Below the pieces are notes generated by a model, which ran no database searches, had not been told where the DNA came from, and saw only the letters and a program-made list of their open reading frames with translations. From Candidatus Berkelbacteria bacterium (GTDB lineage: Bacteria; Patescibacteriota; UBA1384; 2-12-FULL-50-11), in the NCBI GenBank assembly GCA_016432625.1, contig CP066697.1:81415-145414 (forward strand): a stretch of DNA of 64,000 bases. Direction: 5' to 3'. Position 1 is the first letter of the stretch, and each line of letters begins with the position of its first letter. Shown here in pieces: positions 1 to 10,642 of this stretch. Both the position numbers and the translations under genes were made by a program.

Positions 1-105
1 CGTCAGGCTTTCCCATTTGCCGAGCGCCGCCTTGTCGGCAGCTAAAAGTTTTTTCAGATCATCCGGTAATTTGTGCGCCGTCCCGCCTGAAATTTCTTTA
101 GCCAT
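1..105 (-). CDS. hypothetical protein, first ~35 codons only (gene runs off the window start); possible YdeI/DUF1905-like partner of the adjacent DUF1801 gene
   Basis: ATG at 105 on the minus strand with an open frame to position 1 (MAKEISGGTAHKLPDDLKKLLAADKAALGKWESLT); overlaps the stop of the 98..520 gene by 8 nt. Confidence 0.4.
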   Translation of the reverse strand, partial: MAKEISGGTAHKLPDDLKKLLAADKAALGKWESLT

Positions 106-520
106 TTGGATACTTCTTCTGCATATACTCCCAGGAAGCTTTGACTAAATCTTCCAGGACATTCAGGTCGATATCGGCCAGTTTGTCGATGTACAAACAG
201 CCGACGCCCGTTTTGTGCTTGCCGAGCTTCTTTAGCAAAGGCGCGTCTTGATCACCGGTTAGGACGTATAAGGTTAGGGCAGATTTTCGCGGCGAGAAAC
301 CAATTCTTAGCCAGTCACCTTCCTGGCTACTCCGCTCGGATTTGTAGTGATAAACGCCAAACCCAACCATCGTTGGTCCCCACATTACCGGTTTTTCGCC
401 GGCAACTTTTTTAAACAGTTCTAGGAGCATGAAGCCGTCGGCCCGTTTTTGCTCCGGCTCAACTTTATTTAAGAATTCTTCAACACTCGCACTAGTTGCT
501 TTGGTTTTTGGCTCCGCCAT
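98..520 (-). CDS. DUF1801 (YdhG-like) domain protein
   Basis: 140-aa ORF with a conserved W/G-rich core typical of DUF1801; preceded by the conserved promoter element and a 7-nt gap before the ATG. Confidence 0.65.
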   Translation of the reverse strand: MAEPKTKATSASVEEFLNKVEPEQKRADGFMLLELFKKVAGEKPVMWGPTMVGFGVYHYKSERSSQEGDWLRIGFSPRKSALTLYVLTGDQDAPLLKKLGKHKTGVGCLYIDKLADIDLNVLEDLVKASWEYMQKKYPNG

Positions 521-527
521 TTTCCAA

Positions 528-558
528 ATTGTACTACCGAACCTGAAAAAGTCGAGCT
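528..558 (-). promoter_or_regulatory. conserved promoter element, copy 1 (sense TCGACT-N16-TACAAT, 7 nt to the ATG at 520)
   Basis: sense strand reads AGCTCGACTTTTTCAGGTTCGGTAGTACAATTTGGAAA-ATG; shares the core CAGGTTCGG with four further copies. Confidence 0.5.
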
Positions 559-622
559 TATACGCCTCGCTAACTAAAACAGCACCGTCGTAATGACAAG
601 TGCTGCTTTAGTGCGGGAAGGG

Positions 623-811
623 TTACTTCCAGCTAAAGGACTGGCTTAATATCCAGAGCGTGAATGCCGCGGAGATGAAGAACAGCCCCAATCCGATCGG
701 GCTTCCCCAGCTGAACCACGAACCCCACGCCCGCCAATGTTTCAGGCTGTTCTCGTGGCTCCAGTCATATTCCTTCTCGTAATCCCGAGGGCTTTTGTCT
801 TGGTTTTCCAT
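623..811 (-). CDS. small Trp-rich membrane protein, hypothetical
   Basis: 62-aa ORF with a GAAGGGG Shine-Dalgarno upstream and one TM segment. Confidence 0.35.
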   Translation of the reverse strand: MENQDKSPRDYEKEYDWSHENSLKHWRAWGSWFSWGSPIGLGLFFISAAFTLWILSQSFSWK

Positions 812-996
812 ATCACCCCTTCGTTAATTGATGAGTGCCTGTCGTGCCGGGTTCGACGATGCCCAGGTCGACGCAGACGTACTCATTCGCTCTGTCTGGT
901 CTTGGCGTCCGCCATGTCGTTCGCCGAATGAGTGGCGCATGGTTGGAGGACGACCACAGTGATTGTATTTAACCAGTAACTAACAGGCCTGGCAAA

Positions 997-1206
997 CTAG
1001 GACTTGCCGTTTAAGTACTTGCTCGCAACGCTCAAGGCAAATGATGGCAGAATGATAAAAATAGAAGTCAGGAAAAGCCTCGTGACTACTAACTTTAGGC
1101 CAGTACTGCTGTCATCTGGATCGGTTCCGGTCAGAACCATGAAGATCCCTAAGATGCCAAAAGCTATTGAGGAGTAGATAAATACTCGAGTTGCTATTTT
1201 TTGCAT
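997..1206 (-). CDS. small two-TM membrane protein, hypothetical
   Basis: 69-aa hydrophobic ORF. Confidence 0.35.
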   Translation of the reverse strand: MQKIATRVFIYSSIAFGILGIFMVLTGTDPDDSSTGLKLVVTRLFLTSIFIILPSFALSVASKYLNGKS

Positions 1207-1264
1207 GCCTGAAGCGTATCACAACCAATAACTCTATTCAGCCCTGTTTGTGAAGGAGGTGGGG

Positions 1265-1726
1265 TTAATACTTGTCAATCACAATCTTCTTTTGCTGCAT
1301 CAGGGTGGAGAAAGCATTTGGTTTCTGCATCAGTTCTTCCATATCCCTGGGCACTATTTGCCAACTTAAGCCGTACTTATCTTTGCACCAGCCACATTGC
1401 TCCGATTCTGGCACGGCTGAGAGTTTCTCCCAGTAGTAATCGATTTCTTTTTGATCTTCGCTGGCAATGGCAAAAGATACGGCTTCGTTAAACTTGAACT
1501 CGGGACCAGCGTTGATGGCGATAAAGCGCATCCCCTCAAGCTCAAACTCGACTGTTAATACTTCGCCGGCTAAGTCTTTCTGAAAATCAGCCAGACCCTC
1601 CTCGGCGCTTTTGGGATAATGCTCGGTCGATAATATTTTGCTGTTTGGGAATACCGAAACGTAAAAATCTACAGCTTCCTTTGCGTTGCCGTCAAACCAT
1701 AAATTTGGGGTTATTTTTTGGGTCAT
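1265..1726 (-). CDS. VOC-family protein (PhnB/glyoxalase-like; 3-demethylubiquinone-9 3-methyltransferase-like domain)
   Basis: MTQKITPNLWFDGNAKEAVDFY...GWCKDKYGLSWQIVP is the typical PhnB-like VOC signature; start placed at the ATG at 1726, which has an AAGGAAA Shine-Dalgarno. Confidence 0.7.
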   Translation of the reverse strand: MTQKITPNLWFDGNAKEAVDFYVSVFPNSKILSTEHYPKSAEEGLADFQKDLAGEVLTVEFELEGMRFIAINAGPEFKFNEAVSFAIASEDQKEIDYYWEKLSAVPESEQCGWCKDKYGLSWQIVPRDMEELMQKPNAFSTLMQQKKIVIDKY

Positions 1727-1806
1727 TAATTTCCTTTCTTTAGACCAATAGTATCTCAAAAAGCAGCAGGGTAATTGGAAGTTTTATAAACCCGCCAACA
1801 ATTTCC

Positions 1807-1826
1807 CAACCTGGGAATGTCGAGAA
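1807..1826 (-). promoter_or_regulatory. conserved element copy 2 (degenerate; -35-like TCGACA plus a CCAGGTTGGG spacer, no clean -10)
   Basis: sense strand CTCGACATTCCCAGGTTGGGAAATTGTTGG at the 3' end of the PepSY gene. Confidence 0.35.
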
Positions 1827-1830
1827 AGTA

Positions 1831-2190
1831 TTACTCGCCGTCGCCAGCCTCGACTCTCATGATTTCACCGGTTACCGCATTAACATCAACGCGACCGCTG
1901 TCGGTGAATCGGACGCTATAAACCCCAACGCCCTCCTCGACCTCCTGCTCAATTTTCTCAATGGTTTTGCCAGGGCGGCGGTTCTGGGCGATAGTCCGAG
2001 CTTGTTCGATGGTGATATCACCGATAAATTTGTCGGGAACCTCGTCAGTTTCTTCGGACTTGGCAGAATCGCCCACACTTGGCTGGACCTCAACTTTTTC
2101 GACGCTACTATTGTTTCGGGAAGCTAAATAACCCCCGCCCAGGATAATAGCCGCAAGCACGGTTACTATTAAAATAGTTGTTGTTTTCAT
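1831..2190 (-). CDS. PepSY domain-containing secreted/membrane protein
   Basis: N-terminal TM or signal segment; C-terminal GVGVYSVRF...VDVNAVTGEI PepSY-like motif. Confidence 0.55.
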   Translation of the reverse strand: MKTTTILIVTVLAAIILGGGYLASRNNSSVEKVEVQPSVGDSAKSEETDEVPDKFIGDITIEQARTIAQNRRPGKTIEKIEQEVEEGVGVYSVRFTDSGRVDVNAVTGEIMRVEAGDGE

Positions 2191-2309
2191 CTGTATTATC
2201 CTATACCTATTTCTTCCTAACTAAACTGGACGATCTGTATAAAACAAACAGCCCGCCACAAGGACTAGCTCTTCGTTCGCTCCGAATTGTGCAGGAGGTT
2301 AGGCTGCGC

Positions 2310-2708
2310 TTAACCTAAGCTAGAGGATCGCCACCAATACGGCTGAACTTGCTTCAACGATACTGATTGCCACTTGGTCGGATCGTTTTCTTGGGGAATT
2401 GCTACTCGAACATCCTCACCAAACCAGAAAAAGCGTTCCTGGCAAATACCGCACGGCGTATAAATGATAACCTGGCCGGTCTTATCGTTATTAGCAATAC
2501 AAATCGAGGCAACTATTTTCTTCTTTAATTTTTGGGCTTCACAAATCGGCCCAGCTTCGGCACACAAGCAGACTTGATCGTGCGGACTGTCAGTCGAAAC
2601 CCCCGTCAGGATTTGGCCGTCTTCGACGTAACAAGCACTAACTGCTTGATCAGGGTGCTCTTCCAATAGTGATCGGGCAGCATCGTATAGTTTCTGGTCA
2701 ACTTCCAT
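2310..2708 (-). CDS. cytidine/deoxycytidylate deaminase-family zinc-binding protein
   Basis: CAEAGPICEA ... PCGICQE is the (H/C)AE...PCxxC zinc-binding deaminase signature. Confidence 0.6.
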   Translation of the reverse strand: MEVDQKLYDAARSLLEEHPDQAVSACYVEDGQILTGVSTDSPHDQVCLCAEAGPICEAQKLKKKIVASICIANNDKTGQVIIYTPCGICQERFFWFGEDVRVAIPQENDPTKWQSVSLKQVQPYWWRSSSLG

Positions 2709-2715
2709 TCACTTG

Positions 2716-2747
2716 ATTGTACCCCCGAACCTGGAAATGTCGAGCTA
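2716..2747 (-). promoter_or_regulatory. conserved promoter element copy 3 (TCGACA-N16-TACAAT, 7 nt to the ATG at 2708)
   Basis: sense strand TAGCTCGACATTTCCAGGTTCGGGGGTACAATCAAGTGA-ATG. Confidence 0.5.
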
Positions 2748-3818
2748 CTTTGCCTTGGAGTAAGTAATTTGCCACAGCTGTAGGTTTCTCGCACGGAATG
2801 AGCCAGCGCAACCTTGAAGGTAGAGTTTCCACATTCTGTAGAACCTTCCCCCATACTTACTTTTGAGCTTAGGCCAATTTCTATCAAAATTATCCCACCA
2901 GGCCATTAACGTCTTGTCGTAATCAGTACCGAAGTTTTCTAGACCCTCCTCAATAAAGAGCCCTTGAGTCGCTCGATCAAGCTGTTCGAGGGAAGGAAGC
3001 ATACCTCCCGGAAAGATATACTTATCAATCCAAGGGTTAGTGTGGGTTGTCGAGAAATTGCCCCCGATTGTTTGAAACACGAACAGCCCACCTTCGGGCA
3101 GACATCGATGAACGACATCCATATAGTGACGATAGTTTTTCCAGCCCACAGCTTCGAACATTTCTATCGAAACTACTGCATCAAACTTTTCGTTAACGTC
3201 ACGATAATCGGCCAGCCTGTTTTCGACAGGCAATCCTTCACACAGCTCGTTAGCTAATTTAACTTGCTCTTTTGAAACCGTGATATTTACTACCGAAACC
3301 CCATACTTTCGAGCGGCATACTTTGCAAAACTGCCCCAACCGCCCCCAATATCCAACACTCTCATTTTCGGCTTGAGCTTCAACTTTTGGCATATAAGGT
3401 CGAGCTTCTGCTCCTGAGCTTCGTTTAGTGACTTTACGCCTCTCCAGTACCCGCACGTATAAACTAGCCGATGGTCGAGCATTGCCTGGAATAAATCGTT
3501 GCCAAGATCGTAGTGCTCTTTGGCAAGACGCTTAGCGTACCAGCGACTGCCAGTATTTAGTAAGTAGCCAAGCCCAGCGTGAATCAGCCAAGTAGGATGC
3601 TTATAGAGAGATTTCGCCAAGTTTGCTTTGTAGGCTCGGTACACTAGTTGGTCAATCGATTGGCAGTCCCACTGACCATCCATATAACTCTCTCCGATCC
3701 CCAAAATGCCGCCGAAGATCGTTCTTTGGAAGGCTTGCTGGTCGTTTACCTTAAGATCCCAAGCACGCTTTCCATCAAGCCGGATGTCGGCTTGAGCTAG
3801 GAGTTTTTCAATTAACAT
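2745..3818 (-). CDS. cfa: cyclopropane-fatty-acyl-phospholipid synthase
   Basis: 357 aa; VLDIGGGWGSFAKYAARKYGVSVVNIT SAM-binding motif and overall CFA synthase architecture. Confidence 0.85.
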   Translation of the reverse strand: MLIEKLLAQADIRLDGKRAWDLKVNDQQAFQRTIFGGILGIGESYMDGQWDCQSIDQLVYRAYKANLAKSLYKHPTWLIHAGLGYLLNTGSRWYAKRLAKEHYDLGNDLFQAMLDHRLVYTCGYWRGVKSLNEAQEQKLDLICQKLKLKPKMRVLDIGGGWGSFAKYAARKYGVSVVNITVSKEQVKLANELCEGLPVENRLADYRDVNEKFDAVVSIEMFEAVGWKNYRHYMDVVHRCLPEGGLFVFQTIGGNFSTTHTNPWIDKYIFPGGMLPSLEQLDRATQGLFIEEGLENFGTDYDKTLMAWWDNFDRNWPKLKSKYGGRFYRMWKLYLQGCAGSFRARNLQLWQITYSKAK

Positions 3819-3826
3819 CGATCTAA

Positions 3827-3858
3827 TTGTACAGTTGAACCTGAAATTATCGAGCTAA
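3827..3858 (-). promoter_or_regulatory. conserved promoter element copy 4 (TCGATA-N16-TACAAT, 7 nt to the ATG at 3818)
   Basis: sense strand TAGCTCGATAATTTCAGGTTCAACTGTACAATTAGATCG-ATG. Confidence 0.5.
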
Positions 3859-4523
3859 TTCTGTCGCTTTTTGGCAGTAATGAAGAGCGTCTCCGGTATC
3901 TGCTCGGGATTTTCTGCATCGATTGAAGCGGACTCGTCTAATTCTTTGAGGTCAAAGAGCTGCATAAACTCCTCGGAAAGGTAGTCGGTTATATTATGGG
4001 GAGGGAATGTGACAGTAACCTTACCTCCGTAGAGCTTAACCGCAACCAGCGCCTCTCTTGTGCGGGAAATCGTGAATGTATCGAATATTGGGTGGCTCAC
4101 GGCTAGCAGCAATTTACCGCCTGGTTTCAAAGTTCGAGCCATTTCCCGATGAGCTTTTGAAAATTTATTGAGGTAGTGCATAGAGAAGCGCCCCATAATT
4201 AGTCCAAAGAAGTTATCAGAGAACGGAATATTTTCATAACCGCCGATTTTGATATTTTCGGGGTGACCGACATTCTCTTTAGCCAGTTCGTACATTGTTT
4301 CCGAGGGTTCAATGCCAAACGCCTCAATGCCGTTACCCTCGCACCACTTAACATCGTCACCGGCACTACAGCCAATATCCAATACCGGCCCTTTGACCCT
4401 CTTCAGTTCGGCCCGAAGCTTCGTCCTGGTCCAATCCTCTTTATTGGAAAAGAATTTACGCTGGTAATTGACGTAATCTTTTCCCATCGTGTCGTACTGT
4501 TTTAGCATCTCTTCGCCGTTCAT
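3855..4523 (-). CDS. class I SAM-dependent methyltransferase
   Basis: VLDIGCSAGDD motif I; 222 aa. Confidence 0.75.
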   Translation of the reverse strand: MNGEEMLKQYDTMGKDYVNYQRKFFSNKEDWTRTKLRAELKRVKGPVLDIGCSAGDDVKWCEGNGIEAFGIEPSETMYELAKENVGHPENIKIGGYENIPFSDNFFGLIMGRFSMHYLNKFSKAHREMARTLKPGGKLLLAVSHPIFDTFTISRTREALVAVKLYGGKVTVTFPPHNITDYLSEEFMQLFDLKELDESASIDAENPEQIPETLFITAKKRQN

Positions 4524-4530
4524 CGCTTAG

Positions 4531-4562
4531 ATTTTACTCCCGAACCTGGGATTGTCGAGCTA
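4531..4562 (-). promoter_or_regulatory. conserved promoter element copy 5 (TCGACA-N16-TAAAAT, 7 nt to the ATG at 4523)
   Basis: sense strand TAGCTCGACAATCCCAGGTTCGGGAGTAAAATCTAAGCG-ATG. Confidence 0.5.
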
Positions 4563-4817
4563 GCGATCCCGGCTCTTGAGCCAAGCATTTTTCGCCCACT
4601 GCAGGGTTAGCGTTGAGATCAGAAACCCTATCGAAGGAATAATCGCATTGCCCCACGGCCTATTTATCCCCATCAGTTGCATATAAGCGCCAATTAATAA
4701 GTACGTTGTAATAAGCAGGATAATTTTACGAATCAGGCTAGTCTCCCACTCTTTATCGGAGGCCACTTTTGCGTTGCGAGCTTCGATCGCAGACACGCGT
4801 TTTTCGAGATCTTTCAT
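4560..4817 (-). CDS. small membrane protein with an N-terminal coiled-coil, hypothetical
   Basis: 85-aa ORF directly downstream of tRNA-Asn on the minus strand. Confidence 0.4.
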   Translation of the reverse strand: MKDLEKRVSAIEARNAKVASDKEWETSLIRKIILLITTYLLIGAYMQLMGINRPWGNAIIPSIGFLISTLTLQWAKNAWLKSRDR

Positions 4818-4820
4818 CTG

Positions 4821-4892
4821 CTCCGGAGGTCGGATTCGAACCGACGACCAATGCGTTAACAGCGCACTGCTCTACCGCTGAGCTACTCCGGA
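4821..4892 (-). tRNA. tRNA-Asn (anticodon GUU)
   Basis: minus strand TCCGGAG-TA-GCTCAGCGGTAGAGC-A-GTGCG-CTGTTAA-CGCAT-...GGTTCGAATCC...CTCCGGA-G; cloverleaf with anticodon loop CUGUUAA. Confidence 0.85.
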
Positions 4893-5211
4893 ATACGTTC
4901 GTACTTTTTAGCGAAAGACGGCTCAAAATCCCCAGCGAGGATTTTGTCCTTCCGCTCGGACTCGCTCTGCCGCTACGCGGCAACCATGCCCGCTCGTCCT
5001 GCGCGAGACTTTCTTATAAAAAGTACTCACTCAAACAATAAGGTACTGGCATATTTTACCGCAGCGGCACTCTCGAAACAATCAGGACAGCCGCCTTTAC
5101 GAAACGTCTACGTCCAGGTTAAATGTTTAGTAGGAGGGGAAATTCAACAGATTATTCGTATCACTCATATCTGTCACATCGTTACTAATATAGTTCGGGG
5201 TGAGGTATAAG

Positions 5212-5775
5212 ATGCAACAGATCAAAGTAGGAGTTTCTGGTTCAGCGGTCATTTCGGGCAAGGAAGCAGCGCGCAAAGCTGAACTTATCGGTTACTACCT
5301 GGCACGCGCTGGGGCGATTGTTGTAACCGGAGACACGACCGGCATACCCAACGAAGCGGCCCGCGGCGCCAAACGCGCACGCGGTTTTACCTTAGGCATC
5401 TCGCCGGCCTCTAGCTTTCACGACCACGTTCGGCGCTATAAACTACCGTACAAATACACTGATTTTGCGATATACACTGGGTTTGGATACTCCGGACGCA
5501 ATCTATTATTCATTCGCGCAACTGATGCGGTGATTTTCATCCATGGCCGTATTGGAACCTTGAACGAGTTCACGATTGCCTTTGAAGATAAAAAGCCGAT
5601 CGGCATCCTGACAGACTCCGGCGGCATCTCTGATGAATTGGACCATTTGCTGACCGTGGCTCATCGTGGCCGCAACCTGATTGTGTTCGACGAGGATCCG
5701 AAACGCTTAGTCCAGAAAGTTCTCAAGATGGCCCACGAAGACCTGCGACGAGTTGCCCGCGGTGCTGATGGTTAA
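5212..5775 (+). CDS. LOG/TIGR00725-family Rossmann-fold nucleotide-binding protein
   Basis: GGTSGIMEA-like GVSGSAV...TGDTTGIPNEAARGA...IFIHGRIGTLNEF motifs; start moved to the ATG at 5212, which has a GGTGAGG Shine-Dalgarno. Confidence 0.6.
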   Translation: MQQIKVGVSGSAVISGKEAARKAELIGYYLARAGAIVVTGDTTGIPNEAARGAKRARGFTLGISPASSFHDHVRRYKLPYKYTDFAIYTGFGYSGRNLLFIRATDAVIFIHGRIGTLNEFTIAFEDKKPIGILTDSGGISDELDHLLTVAHRGRNLIVFDEDPKRLVQKVLKMAHEDLRRVARGADG

Positions 5776-7126
5776 ACTTGGTTTCTACGGCGCGGCCGGT
5801 GAGGTAACTGGTTCGAATTTTCTTATTGACACCGGTGAGCATAAATACATTGTCGACTGCGGCCTGTTTCAGGGAGCGGACGAGATTACCGAGCACAACG
5901 ACGAGCCGTTTGCCTATAATCCCTCCGAAGTTGAAGCGGTCGTGGTGACACACGCTCACCTCGATCACATCGGTCGCCTACCGATGCTGGTGCGAGGCGG
6001 TTATAAAGGCCCCATTTTTACTACTGAAGCAACTATCGAACTAGCTGGTTTGGTTCTGCAGGACGCGCTTGATTTGGCGACGCATCGCCACGAGCGAACT
6101 GGTAAGCCGCTATTGTTTGAACGAGTTGATTTACAGCGCACACTGGAGATGTTTCAGGCGGTACCATATCACCAACGGCACGCACTGCTCGGTAGCGACG
6201 GGTTCACGCTTTACGACGCCGGCCATATTTTGGGGTCGGCTGCAATTAGCGTTGAAGCAGGCGGTAAACGCATTGTGTTTTCCGGTGACGTCGGTCACGC
6301 CCCGAACGTTCTGCTGCCTCAGCCGGAAACTGGCTTCGCGGCCGACGTTGTCGTCACCGAAGGCACATATGGTGGCCGAGAGCGAGAAGACAAACTGGAT
6401 CGCTTGGCGGTCATCAGGGAAGCGGTGGATTGGGTTACCGAGCGCAAAGGCGTACTGCTCGTACCGGCGTTTTCCGTAGAGCGTAGCCAAGAGCTCCTCT
6501 ACCTCTTAAACACCTTGTTTAACAAACACCAATTGCCGAAAATCCCGATATTTCTTGATAGCCCGCTCGCCATCGAGGCGCTTCAAGTTTTTGAACGCCA
6601 CCAAGAGCTTTACCGCAAGGACGTCCAACAAGTCCGTCGAGTTGACGACGATATTTTCTCGTTTAAGGGTCTGGCGCTGGCGACGTCCGTCGATGAGTCA
6701 AAAGCCATTAATGAGCAGGCGCCGCCAAAAATAATTATCGCTGGCTCGGGCATGATGGAAGGCGGCCGCATTCATCACCATCTGAAACGCTATCTTGGTT
6801 GGCCCAATACCTACCTGCTGGTTGTCGGCTTCCAGGCTCCAGGCACGCTTGGCGACCATATCCTAAGCGGCGCGTCTACCGTCAACATTCTCGGCGAGCG
6901 AATACCGATTAGAGCTAAGGTAGTGCGCGCGGATGTCTTTTCTGGCCACGCGGATAACTCGGAGCTGTTAGACTGGCTCCACGGTCTCCGTTATGCCGAT
7001 AACGCCAAGGTCTTCGTGGTGCATGCTGATGCCGATAAAACCGCACTTTTCGAAGAAAATATAAAGCGCGCCATACCGCACGTCAGTGTTGTTGCACCCG
7101 AACTCGGCCAAGTTACAGAACTGTAG
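5768..7126 (+). CDS. MBL-fold beta-CASP ribonuclease (RNase J/CPSF-like RNA-metabolising metallo-beta-lactamase)
   Basis: MVKLGFYGAAGEVTGSNFLIDTG ... THAHLDHIGRLP (the HxHxDH motif) ... C-terminal beta-CASP His motifs; the ATG at 5768 overlaps the upstream stop by 8 nt. Confidence 0.7.
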   Translation: MVKLGFYGAAGEVTGSNFLIDTGEHKYIVDCGLFQGADEITEHNDEPFAYNPSEVEAVVVTHAHLDHIGRLPMLVRGGYKGPIFTTEATIELAGLVLQDALDLATHRHERTGKPLLFERVDLQRTLEMFQAVPYHQRHALLGSDGFTLYDAGHILGSAAISVEAGGKRIVFSGDVGHAPNVLLPQPETGFAADVVVTEGTYGGREREDKLDRLAVIREAVDWVTERKGVLLVPAFSVERSQELLYLLNTLFNKHQLPKIPIFLDSPLAIEALQVFERHQELYRKDVQQVRRVDDDIFSFKGLALATSVDESKAINEQAPPKIIIAGSGMMEGGRIHHHLKRYLGWPNTYLLVVGFQAPGTLGDHILSGASTVNILGERIPIRAKVVRADVFSGHADNSELLDWLHGLRYADNAKVFVVHADADKTALFEENIKRAIPHVSVVAPELGQVTEL

Positions 7127-8939: not shown

Positions 8940-9824
8940 TTATCGGGCCGATGCAAGGAGATTTCTAATAAAATCATCGAAATTTATTCCGGCGGCAGAT
9001 AATTCTTTATTAATCAGCGAAGTTGGGGTCATGCCAGGTAGGGTGTTTATCTCTAGAAAATATGGTTGGCCGTCGCGTAAAATCCAGTCCAGGCGACCGT
9101 AGGACCGTGCGCCCATCTTCTTATATATGGACACAGATTTCTCCTGAATTTCTTCGGTGAGTTTGGCTTCAATCCGGGCGGGACAGATTTCTTCGCAACC
9201 ACTCTCGTTACTGTACTTGGCCTGATAATCAAAAAACGACGCCTTAGGAACGATCTCAACGAGCGGCAAAGCTTGCAATGACCCGAAAACGTCAATAACG
9301 CCGCAAGTCAGCTCTGTCCCCGGGATTAACTCCTCGATAATAAACTTGCTATCCTCGTCGTATTTCTGGGCCAGCTCTAGGGCGACCGATAGCTCGCTAG
9401 CTTTGCTGACAATTGATACGCCGTAACTTGAGCCCTGCTTGTTAGGCTTCACGACGACGGGAAAGTTGAGAGAATCGTTGGCTGACAGGGTTTTGGGAAC
9501 GGCCACACCAAGAGAGGCCACTAAATCTTTCGTTCTTAGCTTATCGAAAGCGAGCGCTGAGACTGTCGCGCCCGATCCGGTATGAGGGAGATTATTCTCT
9601 TGAAGAATATGTTGTACCTTGCCGTCTTCGCCGAAAGTTCCGTGTAGCGCGAGCACGACTTTCTCAGGTTTGGCGGCAACGAGCTCCTCGAGCCAAGTTG
9701 GTTTCGCTGGATCAATAACGACGAACTTGACGCCTTGTCGTTGCAGGGAATCTTGAATAGTTTTTGCCGTCGCAAAAGATACCTCGCGCTCGGCCGATGG
9801 TCCACCGGCAAGAATTACTAACAT
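8940..9824 (-). CDS. ddl: D-alanine--D-alanine ligase
   Basis: MLVILAGGPSAEREVS ... ATP-grasp motifs; start placed at the internal ATG at 9824 that matches the canonical Ddl N-terminus (the ORF is open to 9860). Confidence 0.85.
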   Translation of the reverse strand: MLVILAGGPSAEREVSFATAKTIQDSLQRQGVKFVVIDPAKPTWLEELVAAKPEKVVLALHGTFGEDGKVQHILQENNLPHTGSGATVSALAFDKLRTKDLVASLGVAVPKTLSANDSLNFPVVVKPNKQGSSYGVSIVSKASELSVALELAQKYDEDSKFIIEELIPGTELTCGVIDVFGSLQALPLVEIVPKASFFDYQAKYSNESGCEEICPARIEAKLTEEIQEKSVSIYKKMGARSYGRLDWILRDGQPYFLEINTLPGMTPTSLINKELSAAGINFDDFIRNLLASAR

Positions 9825-9949
9825 GTGGAGACGCCTGAACGCCATTCGCACCCAGATCATATCTGGAAAACACTACTTCGGAAAGTTGCGTCTACCGAAC
9901 GAATCTCCGAACCTTGTCGTACGAAAGCAATGAAAGTATTCCAGCAACA

Positions 9950-10315: not shown

Positions 10316-10513
10316 TTGCCAAATTCTAACAAGTGTATGGCCGTTTTCAAGGATGAGGTGAGATTCGAACTCTTGTCAGGCGACTTTTGGCGTGTAAACA
10401 AAACACGTTTGAACCAAGAACAGGTTCACTTATGAACCGTCTGGCTTGGCGGGAGCACAAGGATTCGAACCTAGGACCACCAAGGTATCTGCTGACGCAG
10501 CTGCTGAAAACTG

Positions 10514-10585
10514 TGGGCGGACCAGGGCTCGAACCTGGAACCACCAAGGTATAAGCTTGGCGCTCTACCATTGAGCTATCCGCCC
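10514..10585 (-). tRNA. tRNA-Ile (anticodon UAU)
   Basis: minus strand GGGCGGA-TA-GCTC-AATGGT-AGAGC-G-CCAAG-CUUAUAC-CTTGG-TGGTT-CCAGG-TTCGAGC-CCTGG-TCCGCCC-A; anticodon loop read directly. Confidence 0.7.
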
Positions 10586-10624: not shown

Positions 10625-10642
10625 ACTATACTCCCGAACCAG
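10625..10642 (-). promoter_or_regulatory. tRNA-Ile promoter -10 (TATAGT) preceded by the conserved CTGGTTCGGGAG spacer motif
   Basis: sense strand AATCAACTGGTTCGGGAGTATAGTGAAGGG; same core as the cluster promoters at 0.5-4.6 kb. Confidence 0.4.

Follow-up and report, generated by a model that had tools for sequence, protein, structure and literature searches.

What is the sequence that is repeated in front of several unrelated genes beside a tRNA-Asn gene in a bacterium of the candidate phyla radiation (CPR), and why is it conserved? The locus lies in a 64,000-nucleotide (nt) stretch, here called the window, of a Candidatus Berkelbacteria bacterium (GenBank assembly GCA_016432625.1, contig CP066697.1, positions 81,415 to 145,414), in which a block of 32 nt stands directly upstream of four minus-strand genes. 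We propose, with somewhat better than even confidence, that the whole element would be a clade-specific, self-contained sigma-70-type core promoter for leaderless mRNAs, which travels with single accessory genes.

Copies of the element in the window

The pattern GCTCGAY-N4-YCAGGTTC-N4-GTAMAAT matched the minus strand exactly at four sites (the cores of copies A to D, Table 1). The chance expectation was zero, as none of 100 dinucleotide-preserving shuffles contained a match, even at three mismatches. Each of the four copies was followed by exactly 7 nt and then by the first in-frame ATG of a gene, encoding an S-adenosylmethionine (SAM)-dependent methyltransferase (copy A), cyclopropane-fatty-acyl-phospholipid (CFA) synthase (copy B), a deaminase-like protein (copy C) or a DUF1801 protein (copy D). 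A position weight matrix (PWM) scan of the whole 64 kb gave these copies 35-52 bits and the next-best site 7.5-7.9 bits, and found no further copy. In copies A, B and C the motif begins at the TAG stop of the preceding gene, so that the intergenic gap is exactly 36 nt; copy B has the most divergent spacer (CAACTG).

The sequence-only reading of this locus had reported five copies before five consecutive genes. Four of these copies are canonical and exact, but the fifth, at the junction of the PepSY and VOC genes, is a relic that has lost its -10, and the VOC (3-dmu-9_3-mt) gene starts at 1726, 68 nt downstream of it, with its own Shine-Dalgarno sequence. The genes are also not strictly consecutive: PepSY, two small open reading frames (ORFs) and an ORF of 85 amino acids (aa) adjoining tRNA-Asn all lack the motif. 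A sixth canonical copy was found just past the left window edge, on a public-run contig with the same genes (L023 4207-4248), where TAGCTCGACTTTTCCAGGTTCGAGACTACAAT-N7-ATG precedes a gene for an Mrr-like nuclease (Mrr_cat/NA-iREase1). The array therefore continues beyond the window edge.

Partial matches had been reported before tRNA-Ile and ddl as well. The first was confirmed: GGTTCGGGAGTATAGT differs from the 16-mer at one position, and 0.74 matches are expected at up to three mismatches. Its place before a tRNA gene points to a role in transcription, not translation. The ddl match is at chance level when taken alone (21 matches of the 9-mer at one mismatch versus 13.7 expected), but the sequence is probably a decayed motif copy, because the region upstream of the window ddl aligns to the canonical copy before a 58%-identical ddl in locus L018. 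The stretch 9822-9935 upstream of ddl looks like a rearranged, decayed motif. The BLASTP alignment begins at Met13 of the window ddl ORF, and the start may be the ATG at 9824, not that at 9860.

Distribution and consensus in related genomes

The strict pattern was searched in 185,579 species-representative genomes, a set outside which the window's own genome falls. It was present in 10 stretches, every one from uncultured CPR bacteria that their depositors had named Candidatus Saccharibacteria, Saccharimonadales, Berkelbacteria or plain "bacterium". Metagenomes from soil and groundwater contributed 12 stretches, and one further metagenome-assembled genome with the motif was found by protein search. 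The sites of origin include Hainich groundwater well H43 and the soils of Ga0210394, Ga0070692 and Ga0196963. Viral contigs gave no match to the strict pattern, and a phage origin of the motif was rejected on that ground. Several motif loci were syntenic with the window at 64-78% nucleotide identity. Scans of the fetched loci (pieces of 3-13 kb, labelled L001 and so on) gave 37 non-redundant canonical copies from at least 12 related CPR genomes or metagenome populations. The element is confined to one clade; neither this clade-wide spread nor the bipartite build described below was part of the sequence-only reading.

Canonical copies scored 33-54 bits, with an empty gap below, down to 16 bits or less, which sets them apart as a class of their own, not the upper end of a continuous distribution. 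Written in two parts, the consensus is TA-GCTCGACATTTCCA|GGTTCGGGAGTACAAT-N6/7-ATG; with the downstream bases it reads TA-GCTCGACATTTCCAGGTTCGGGAGTACAAT-TTAGRAA-ATG. Conservation sets in abruptly at TA, spans every spacer position at 0.7-2 bits and is gone upstream. The conserved block thus covers 32 nt, from -39 to -8 relative to the ATG, between unconserved flanks. The positions that the search pattern left unspecified, and 16 secondary copies found only by proximity, gave the same consensus.

All 37 copies were oriented toward the downstream gene. The downstream genes were about 30 unrelated single accessory genes from different Pfam families, among them methyltransferases, HAD, NUDIX, Ham1, HIT, DinB-like, isochorismatase, AHSA1, alpha/beta-hydrolase and beta-lactamase-like proteins, as well as VanY, EamA, an ion channel, Gmad2, DUF402, DUF1653, OmdA and a PALP-MTase-RibB fusion. 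In one genome (L018) the gene downstream of a canonical motif was ddl.

Selection on the whole block

The age of the copies was judged from ortholog pairs that carry the motif in two genomes. Identity at 4-fold-degenerate sites was 0.31 for the deaminase (window versus L008), 0.49 for HAD and 0.49 for Gmad2, and these sites are at or near saturation. The 30-mer before the same ortholog pairs was nevertheless 83-93% identical. Since the motif is kept despite saturated synonymous sites, the whole block, including the spacer, is under selection; purifying selection acts over all 32 positions. The earlier statement that the spacer is conserved past normal promoter needs is borne out, with selection and not recent copying as the cause. 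Concerted evolution within a genome was also considered and seems unlikely: copies from the same genome, judged by eye, were no more alike than copies from different genomes. The DUF1801 gene of L004 has no motif at all, which indicates that promoters also turn over.

Promoter-like geometry and predicted leaderless starts

A generic sigma-70 scan returned the four window copies as its top four minus-strand picks. The hexamers, which had been read as TCGACA-N16-TACAAT, occur in the copies as TCGACA/TCGATA/TCGACT-16-TACAAT/TAAAAT and match at 9-10 of 12 positions, in agreement with that assignment. The distance from the -10 to the start codon, already remarked upon in the window, held across genomes: in 31 of the 37 copies the first ATG, which no in-frame ATG preceded, lay 6 or 7 nt past the -10 and opened an ORF of 50 codons or more. 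The exceptions include a GTG start 7 nt from the -10, a short ORF, an ATG 10 nt away, a start at 17 nt that has a Shine-Dalgarno sequence, and a relic. The N-termini of the deaminase homologs confirmed the ATG predicted from the motif. The motif genes, with only 6-7 nt before the ATG, have no Shine-Dalgarno sequence at a working distance; ribosomal-type and other window genes have strong ones of the AAGGAGG type (for example TAAGGAGG).

The same -10-to-ATG geometry was found at about 10 other window genes, which have TAnnnT-N6/7-ATG, ordinary -35 boxes (TTGAAA, TTGCGA, TCGACG) and no Shine-Dalgarno sequence. They include the genes for FtsH, a YkuD transpeptidase, AdoMet decarboxylase, a DUF2207 protein, an HD protein, a ZIP transporter and a PAS histidine kinase. 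The motif is thus not alone in having this geometry. Parts of the motif are echoed in the FtsH and HD promoters (CTCGATATTTC...TTCGGTATAAAAT and CCCTGGTTCGTGATACAGT). In other genomes, motif-less deaminase homologs (73-58% identity) had TAGAGT, TATTAT or TACCAT at N6-7 before the same conserved N-terminus, and in L006 a relic of the motif was followed by a textbook TTGACA-N17-TAACAT-N7-ATG.

We also analyzed the non-motif leaderless-type promoters of these genomes. They showed 39-61% G at positions -1 to -4 before the -10, versus 20-27% in controls, and TTGnCA at 17-bp spacing. The motif spacer runs in the order T-tract, GC, AT and G-rich. A published study reported this order for strong spacers and showed changes in promoter strength of up to 600-fold from the spacer alone (PMC12641261). 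The G-rich pre-10 data and the spacer order make recognition by the RNA polymerase of this lineage more likely than a separate regulator, but are no proof of it. Promoter identity, the position of the transcription start and leaderless translation are predictions from sequence.

Bipartite build of the element

Scans with separate half-PWMs showed that GCTCGACATTTCCA and GGTTCGGGAGTAnAAT are not always found together. In every half or hybrid copy the similarity ends at CCA|GG. At five places the halves lie 23-56 nt apart, and the inserts are related to one another; their alignment gives a series of nested deletions of a long form, about 88 nt in length, with a conserved CTATGGC block. The 3' half alone was found before tRNA-Ile in the window and before an ion-channel gene in L001, whose ortholog in L005 has the full motif, and it was also found before genes whose 5' half is missing or displaced. 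The converse form, the 5' half joined to other sequence, is kept in two genomes with the spacing TCGACA-N17-CAYCAT-N6-ATG. These forms suggest that the 5' half is a -35 module and the 3' half an extended -10 module, the latter apparently able to work alone.

Cassette-like behaviour and the probable hotspot beside tRNA-Asn

The homology between the window and L008 spans exactly from the first base of the motif to the end of the deaminase gene. This unit is found between tsaD and valS in L008 and L024, not beside tRNA-Asn. A HicB/HicA toxin-antitoxin pair is inserted in L008 (2135-2693) exactly between the tsaD stop and the 5' edge of the motif; in L024 (1637-1641) there is no HicAB pair, and the TAG of tsaD overlaps the motif. 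The synteny between L002 and L020 likewise begins at the 5' edge of the motif. That cross-genome homology runs from motif start to gene end, in differing neighbourhoods, bears out the earlier suggestion of cassette-like units with their own promoter.

The variable region is flanked by tRNA-Asn/SLOG on one side and on the other by the DUF1801-OmdA pair, its conserved anchor. The content between these anchors differs in every relative: the window has five genes, including three cassettes, L004 has an AHSA1 cassette and VOC, L016 has four other cassettes, and L009 and L005 have yet others. The upstream co-directional ORF stops at the motif's own TAG or TAA in 15 of the 37 copies and within 5-12 nt in 8 more, and in no case does it read through. 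On these comparisons the motif with its gene appears to behave as a cassette, and the region after tRNA-Asn appears to be a variable hotspot.

In L016 the last 14 nt of tRNA-Asn (CCGACCTCCAGAGC; 6495-6508) recur 44 nt downstream (6553-6566), fused to the first motif copy. This repeat might be an att-like duplication, which would be a sign of an integrated island, or it might have arisen from the GGAGG/CCTCC hairpin of the tRNA trailer, which explains it in part; it is confined to L016 and missing from the window.

Structure, symmetry and family searches

RNAalifold predicted no base pairs, either on 38 copies or on 7 long or hybrid forms. The folding energy was no better than that of shuffles, as RNA and as single-stranded DNA (ssDNA) of both strands (z -0.13 to +1.07; ssDNA minimum free energy -0.4 kcal/mol, z = +1.07), and two hand-drawn candidate helices showed no covariation. 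RNA or DNA secondary structure was therefore rejected as the basis of the motif. The consensus has no dyad or direct-repeat symmetry and no inverted repeats. A search of window positions 1-6000 against Rfam 15 found only tRNA-Asn, with all other matches far below their gathering scores. The lack of structure, dyad and Rfam match argues against readings of the element as attC-like, dif-like, similar to miniature inverted-repeat transposable elements, or an RNA element. No recombinase or integrase domain was present among the annotated array genes, in a scan limited to the fetched loci. To our knowledge, none of the sigma-54, SigB, SigH, ComX and extracytoplasmic function (ECF) consensus sequences, compared informally, fits the motif.

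Preferred explanation and alternatives

In the explanation that we prefer, the 5' module (TA)GCTCGACATTTCCA would carry the -35-like TCGACA, and the 3' module GGTTCGGGAG-TACAAT would supply a G-rich "extended -10" block together with the -10 hexamer. RNA polymerase would initiate on the A of the ATG, or on the base preceding it, and yield a leaderless mRNA, on which ribosomes would initiate directly, without a Shine-Dalgarno sequence. Such a start should work only at the 5' end of an RNA, and each gene of a gap-free array would for that reason need its own copy. The unit of motif and ORF would be gained, lost and relocated among related genomes, with the stretch from tRNA-Asn to DUF1801-OmdA as a hotspot. 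As for the constraint on the spacer, we prefer that the 3' block would be read as an extended -10 by the lineage's RNA polymerase holoenzyme; a dedicated DNA-binding factor would be the main alternative.

Several points weigh against this explanation. The loci were gathered with the strict pattern, so that conservation at fixed positions in the primary matches is partly forced, and the argument from conservation rests on the unspecified positions, the 16 secondary copies and the ortholog pairs. The split copies place TCGACA 23-56 nt too far upstream for a -35, and their 5' half must have another role or none. The sigma-70 holoenzymes known to us do not read 16 spacer positions base by base. 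The motif holds about 45 bits, roughly three times as much as a normal promoter, and RNA polymerase alone may not explain its conservation.

A regulon is a possible but distinctly less probable reading, in which the block, and especially GGTTCGGGAG beside the -10, binds a dedicated trans-acting protein. Such a factor, to which we give the same limited credence, could be an alternative sigma, a sigma-adapting activator or a repressor that co-regulates accessory, stress or house-cleaning genes. A regulon would fit the discrete class with its bimodal scores and the constraint and selection at each position. Many of the targets are detoxification or house-cleaning genes (NUDIX, Ham1, HIT, DinB-like, VOC, isochorismatase, AHSA1, DUF1801, OmdA, methyltransferases), and the 3' half pairs with unrelated upstream DNA that has no recognisable -35, as activator- or sigma-specific promoters behave. 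However, the -10 is an unremarkable TAnAAT, the G-rich block before it is also found at generic promoters of these genomes, and the motif offers no dyad or direct-repeat symmetry to a dimeric regulator. The targets also include ddl (L018) and a tRNA and follow no common pathway, and no candidate regulator was found beside the arrays. A regulon would keep the element as a promoter and would refine, not contradict, the explanation that we favour.

The bipartite build raises a different alternative. An undescribed exchange system of Saccharibacteria-like CPR bacteria, an idea that we consider unlikely, might swap units built as [GGTTCGGGAG-TACAAT-N7-ATG...gene...TAG-CTCGACATTTCCA] by recombination at the fixed CCA|GG junction. 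Such a system, with the same low probability, might be a counterpart of the integron in which each cassette brings its own leaderless promoter and a stop codon for its upstream neighbour, and the tRNA-Asn-adjacent region serves as the platform. The more general form of this reading, that the motif is the cis site of cassette exchange, attC-like plus promoter, with crossover at CCA|GG or TA|G, is in our view also improbable, and slightly the more so; recombination at a fixed point would account for half copies, hybrids and arrays alike. The half and hybrid copies do all break at CCA|GG, the L024/L008 and L002/L020 breakpoints fall at the 5' edge of the motif, and in 15 of 37 copies the TAG of the motif itself serves as the stop of the upstream ORF, with none reading through. 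The single-gene arrays beside a tRNA gene, which differ in content in each of four or five related genomes, and the 14-nt tRNA-Asn 3'-end repeat fused to the first copy of L016 point the same way. However, the motif has no inverted repeats, no stable ssDNA or RNA hairpin and no covariation, and the annotated arrays contain no integrase or recombinase. Ordinary indel evolution of a longer intergenic element can yield the nested-deletion inserts, and selection for compaction could also put the stops at the motif edge. Promoter function, unlike recombination, explains why the distance to the ATG is fixed and why the element is also met before a tRNA.

We consider it highly improbable that the block acts at the RNA level, that is, that it is transcribed from upstream and serves as a processing site, a 5'-UTR (untranslated region) translation enhancer or an element of the upstream 3' end. 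The arrays leave no room for terminators, so that read-through RNA must include the motif, and GGGAG resembles a Shine-Dalgarno sequence. However, at 13 nt from the ATG, GGGAG is too distant to work as a Shine-Dalgarno sequence, and there is no consensus structure, covariation, better-than-shuffle energy or Rfam match. The 3' half also stands before a tRNA gene, where translation is irrelevant, and the motif occurs where there is no co-directional gene upstream.

Hardly credible, finally, is the reading that nothing special is present (an ordinary consensus promoter, recent duplication or chance), for although the hexamers and the leaderless geometry are common to other window genes, only 4 of the approximately 64 window genes carry the motif, the upstream regions of tRNA, FtsH, YkuD and ribosomal-type genes differ from it, no copies are expected, and the element is kept between genomes with saturated synonymous sites. 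The PWM gap together with these differing tRNA and housekeeping upstream regions rules out the organism's ordinary consensus promoter, and the same gap and the count of carrier genes dispose of the possibility, raised in the sequence-only reading, that the motif is a ubiquitous consensus spacer.

Comparison with known systems

In the literature, no paper with this sequence was found, and no promoter, leaderless or transcription start site description was found for Saccharibacteria, Patescibacteria or CPR. In Actinobacteria (Mycobacterium, Streptomyces) and Deinococcus, leaderless genes have sigma-70-type promoters with only the -10, and in some cases the -35, in common. The element resembles them in having TAnnnT 6-7 nt before the start codon, no Shine-Dalgarno sequence and an expected start at the A of the ATG, and in that leaderless and Shine-Dalgarno-led genes are mixed in one genome. 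It differs in lineage (CPR/Patescibacteria) and in the 32 contiguous positions that are conserved across species and unrelated genes.

The actinobacterial RecA-NDp/PafBC motif and the T4 MotA box stand in place of a -35, and each marks a coherent regulon (DNA repair and phage middle genes, respectively). Like them, the element has a conserved non-hexamer block beside a TAnnnT -10, forms a discrete promoter class and often precedes genes with predicted leaderless starts; unlike them, its canonical form has a -35-like hexamer, and its genes have no common pathway.

The element also shares features with integron cassettes, namely arrays of unrelated single genes that are split by a conserved site and vary in content between relatives, and with attC, namely conserved ends around a centre of variable length (0-56 nt in this element). 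However, attC lies 3' of promoterless cassettes and forms an imperfect hairpin with extrahelical bases, and intI (a tyrosine recombinase) and a common Pc adjoin the array, whereas the present element is unstructured, lies 5' of each gene and is itself promoter-like, with no integrase seen in the annotated loci. Correia/NEMIS, ERIC and REPIN elements are likewise short dispersed repeats that supply promoters and have internal-deletion variants that keep the ends. Those elements are 100-150 bp long with terminal inverted repeats and hairpins; the element described here has 32 nt (about 88 nt in the long form), no inverted repeats and always faces a gene. A Xer/dif-like (pdif) site has 28 bp, with two inverted 11-bp arms and a 6-bp centre, and the present motif has no such dyad symmetry.

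Putative mobile promoters, as described by Matus-Garcia, Nijveen and van Passel, are at least 50 nt long with at least 80% identity, lie between -150 and -50, mostly lack a -10 and have an unknown mechanism of mobilisation (PMC3575422). The element is like them in that near-identical sequence lies upstream of non-homologous genes, both within a genome and between taxa. It falls outside their definition by length and position: it has 32-40 nt, abuts the ATG, has a -10 and is under purifying selection. With the strong spacers of PMC12641261 the element shares the order T-tract, GC, AT and G-rich, a G-rich block abutting the -10 and a C just 5' of the -35-like hexamer; it differs from those promoters in that it has no TG (Ex) dinucleotide, that exact bases and not composition are conserved, and that the 3' block appears workable without a -35. 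Taken together, the element is apparently undescribed, and its nearest concepts would be leaderless promoters, putative mobile promoters (PMC3575422) and, by analogy only, integron cassettes.

Transcription and translation initiation in CPR/Patescibacteria are almost unknown, and the element offers a testable, information-rich core-promoter architecture for one clade. It points to a transcription machinery in this lineage that reads a G-rich block directly before the -10, and to an organisation of accessory genes in these streamlined genomes as cassettes of one gene and one promoter each, with turnover at a hotspot linked to a tRNA gene. If the CCA|GG junction reflects site-specific exchange, it would represent a new kind of cassette system. 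The 32-mer is also a candidate portable expression signal for the emerging genetic systems of Saccharibacteria.

Feature coordinates and minor observations

Table 1. Positions of the element, its partial forms and neighbouring features (window numbering unless a locus label is given)
Feature	Position	Strand	Remarks
Canonical copy A	4521..4562	minus	TAG (stop of 85-aa ORF), core 4531-4560, 7 nt, ATG of SAM-methyltransferase
Canonical copy B	3816..3857	minus	TAG (methyltransferase stop), core 3826-3855, 7 nt, CFA synthase ATG
Canonical copy C	2706..2747	minus	TAG (CFA synthase stop), core 2716-2745, 7 nt, deaminase-like ATG
Canonical copy D	518..559	minus	TAA-G, core 528-557, 7 nt, ATG of DUF1801 gene
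Decayed copy after PepSY stop	about 1794..1827	minus	5' half TCTCGACATTCCCA and GGTTGGG retained, -10 lost
Probable decayed copy upstream of ddl	9890..9925	minus	ACGACA..AGGTTCGGAG..TTCGGTAGACG, -10 lost
3' half alone (GGTTCGGGAGTATAGT)	10625..10640	minus	39 nt upstream of tRNA-Ile(UAU); 5' half absent
Split copies	L003 1553-1652; L022 277-376; L001 770-838; L003 4197-4270; L013 3871-3930		
5'-half-only hybrid, kept in two genomes	L006 3998-4041; L010 1566-1610 (minus strand)		TAGCTCGACATTTYCA joined to GGCTCGTCAYCATWAATTA-ATG
SAM-dependent methyltransferase gene (cassette)	3855..4523	minus	
CFA synthase (CMAS) gene (cassette)	2745..3818	minus	
Cytidine/dCMP-deaminase-like gene (cassette)	2310..2708	minus	in other genomes, motif and gene between tsaD and valS
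Terminator-like hairpin and T-run	2249..2267	minus	after deaminase gene, closing the three-cassette block
DUF1801 gene	98..520	minus	OmdA-like gene next, overlapping start at 105
tRNA-Asn	4820..4892	minus	conserved right-hand border of the variable cassette region
Non-motif TAnnnT-N6/7-ATG gene starts	8900, 10315, 15996, 19995, 31635, 33322, 33398, 57372, 63304		

The first 4000 nt of the window have its lowest GC content (0.464-0.481 versus about 0.49-0.55 elsewhere), which fits accessory or acquired DNA in the cassette region. Between motif copy D and a 62-aa ORF, at 564-621, lies a hairpin with a T-run (CAGCAC...GTGCTG-TTTT), probably a terminator that precedes the putative promoter; it gave a spurious weak mir-15 match in Rfam. 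The 85-aa ORF (4560-4817, minus strand) encodes two transmembrane segments and has no Pfam match, and its ATG lies 2 nt past the 3' end of tRNA-Asn (4815-4820). If this ORF is co-transcribed with tRNA-Asn, 3' processing of the tRNA would leave a near-leaderless mRNA, in a manner like "tRNA punctuation".

The TAG stop is common in the window (26 of 64 genes). A tRNA-Ile with the anticodon UAU is uncommon in bacteria, in which AUA is usually read by a lysidine-modified CAU tRNA; this anticodon was found in the tRNA-Ile of the window (10513-10585) and in that of L016 (13195-13268).

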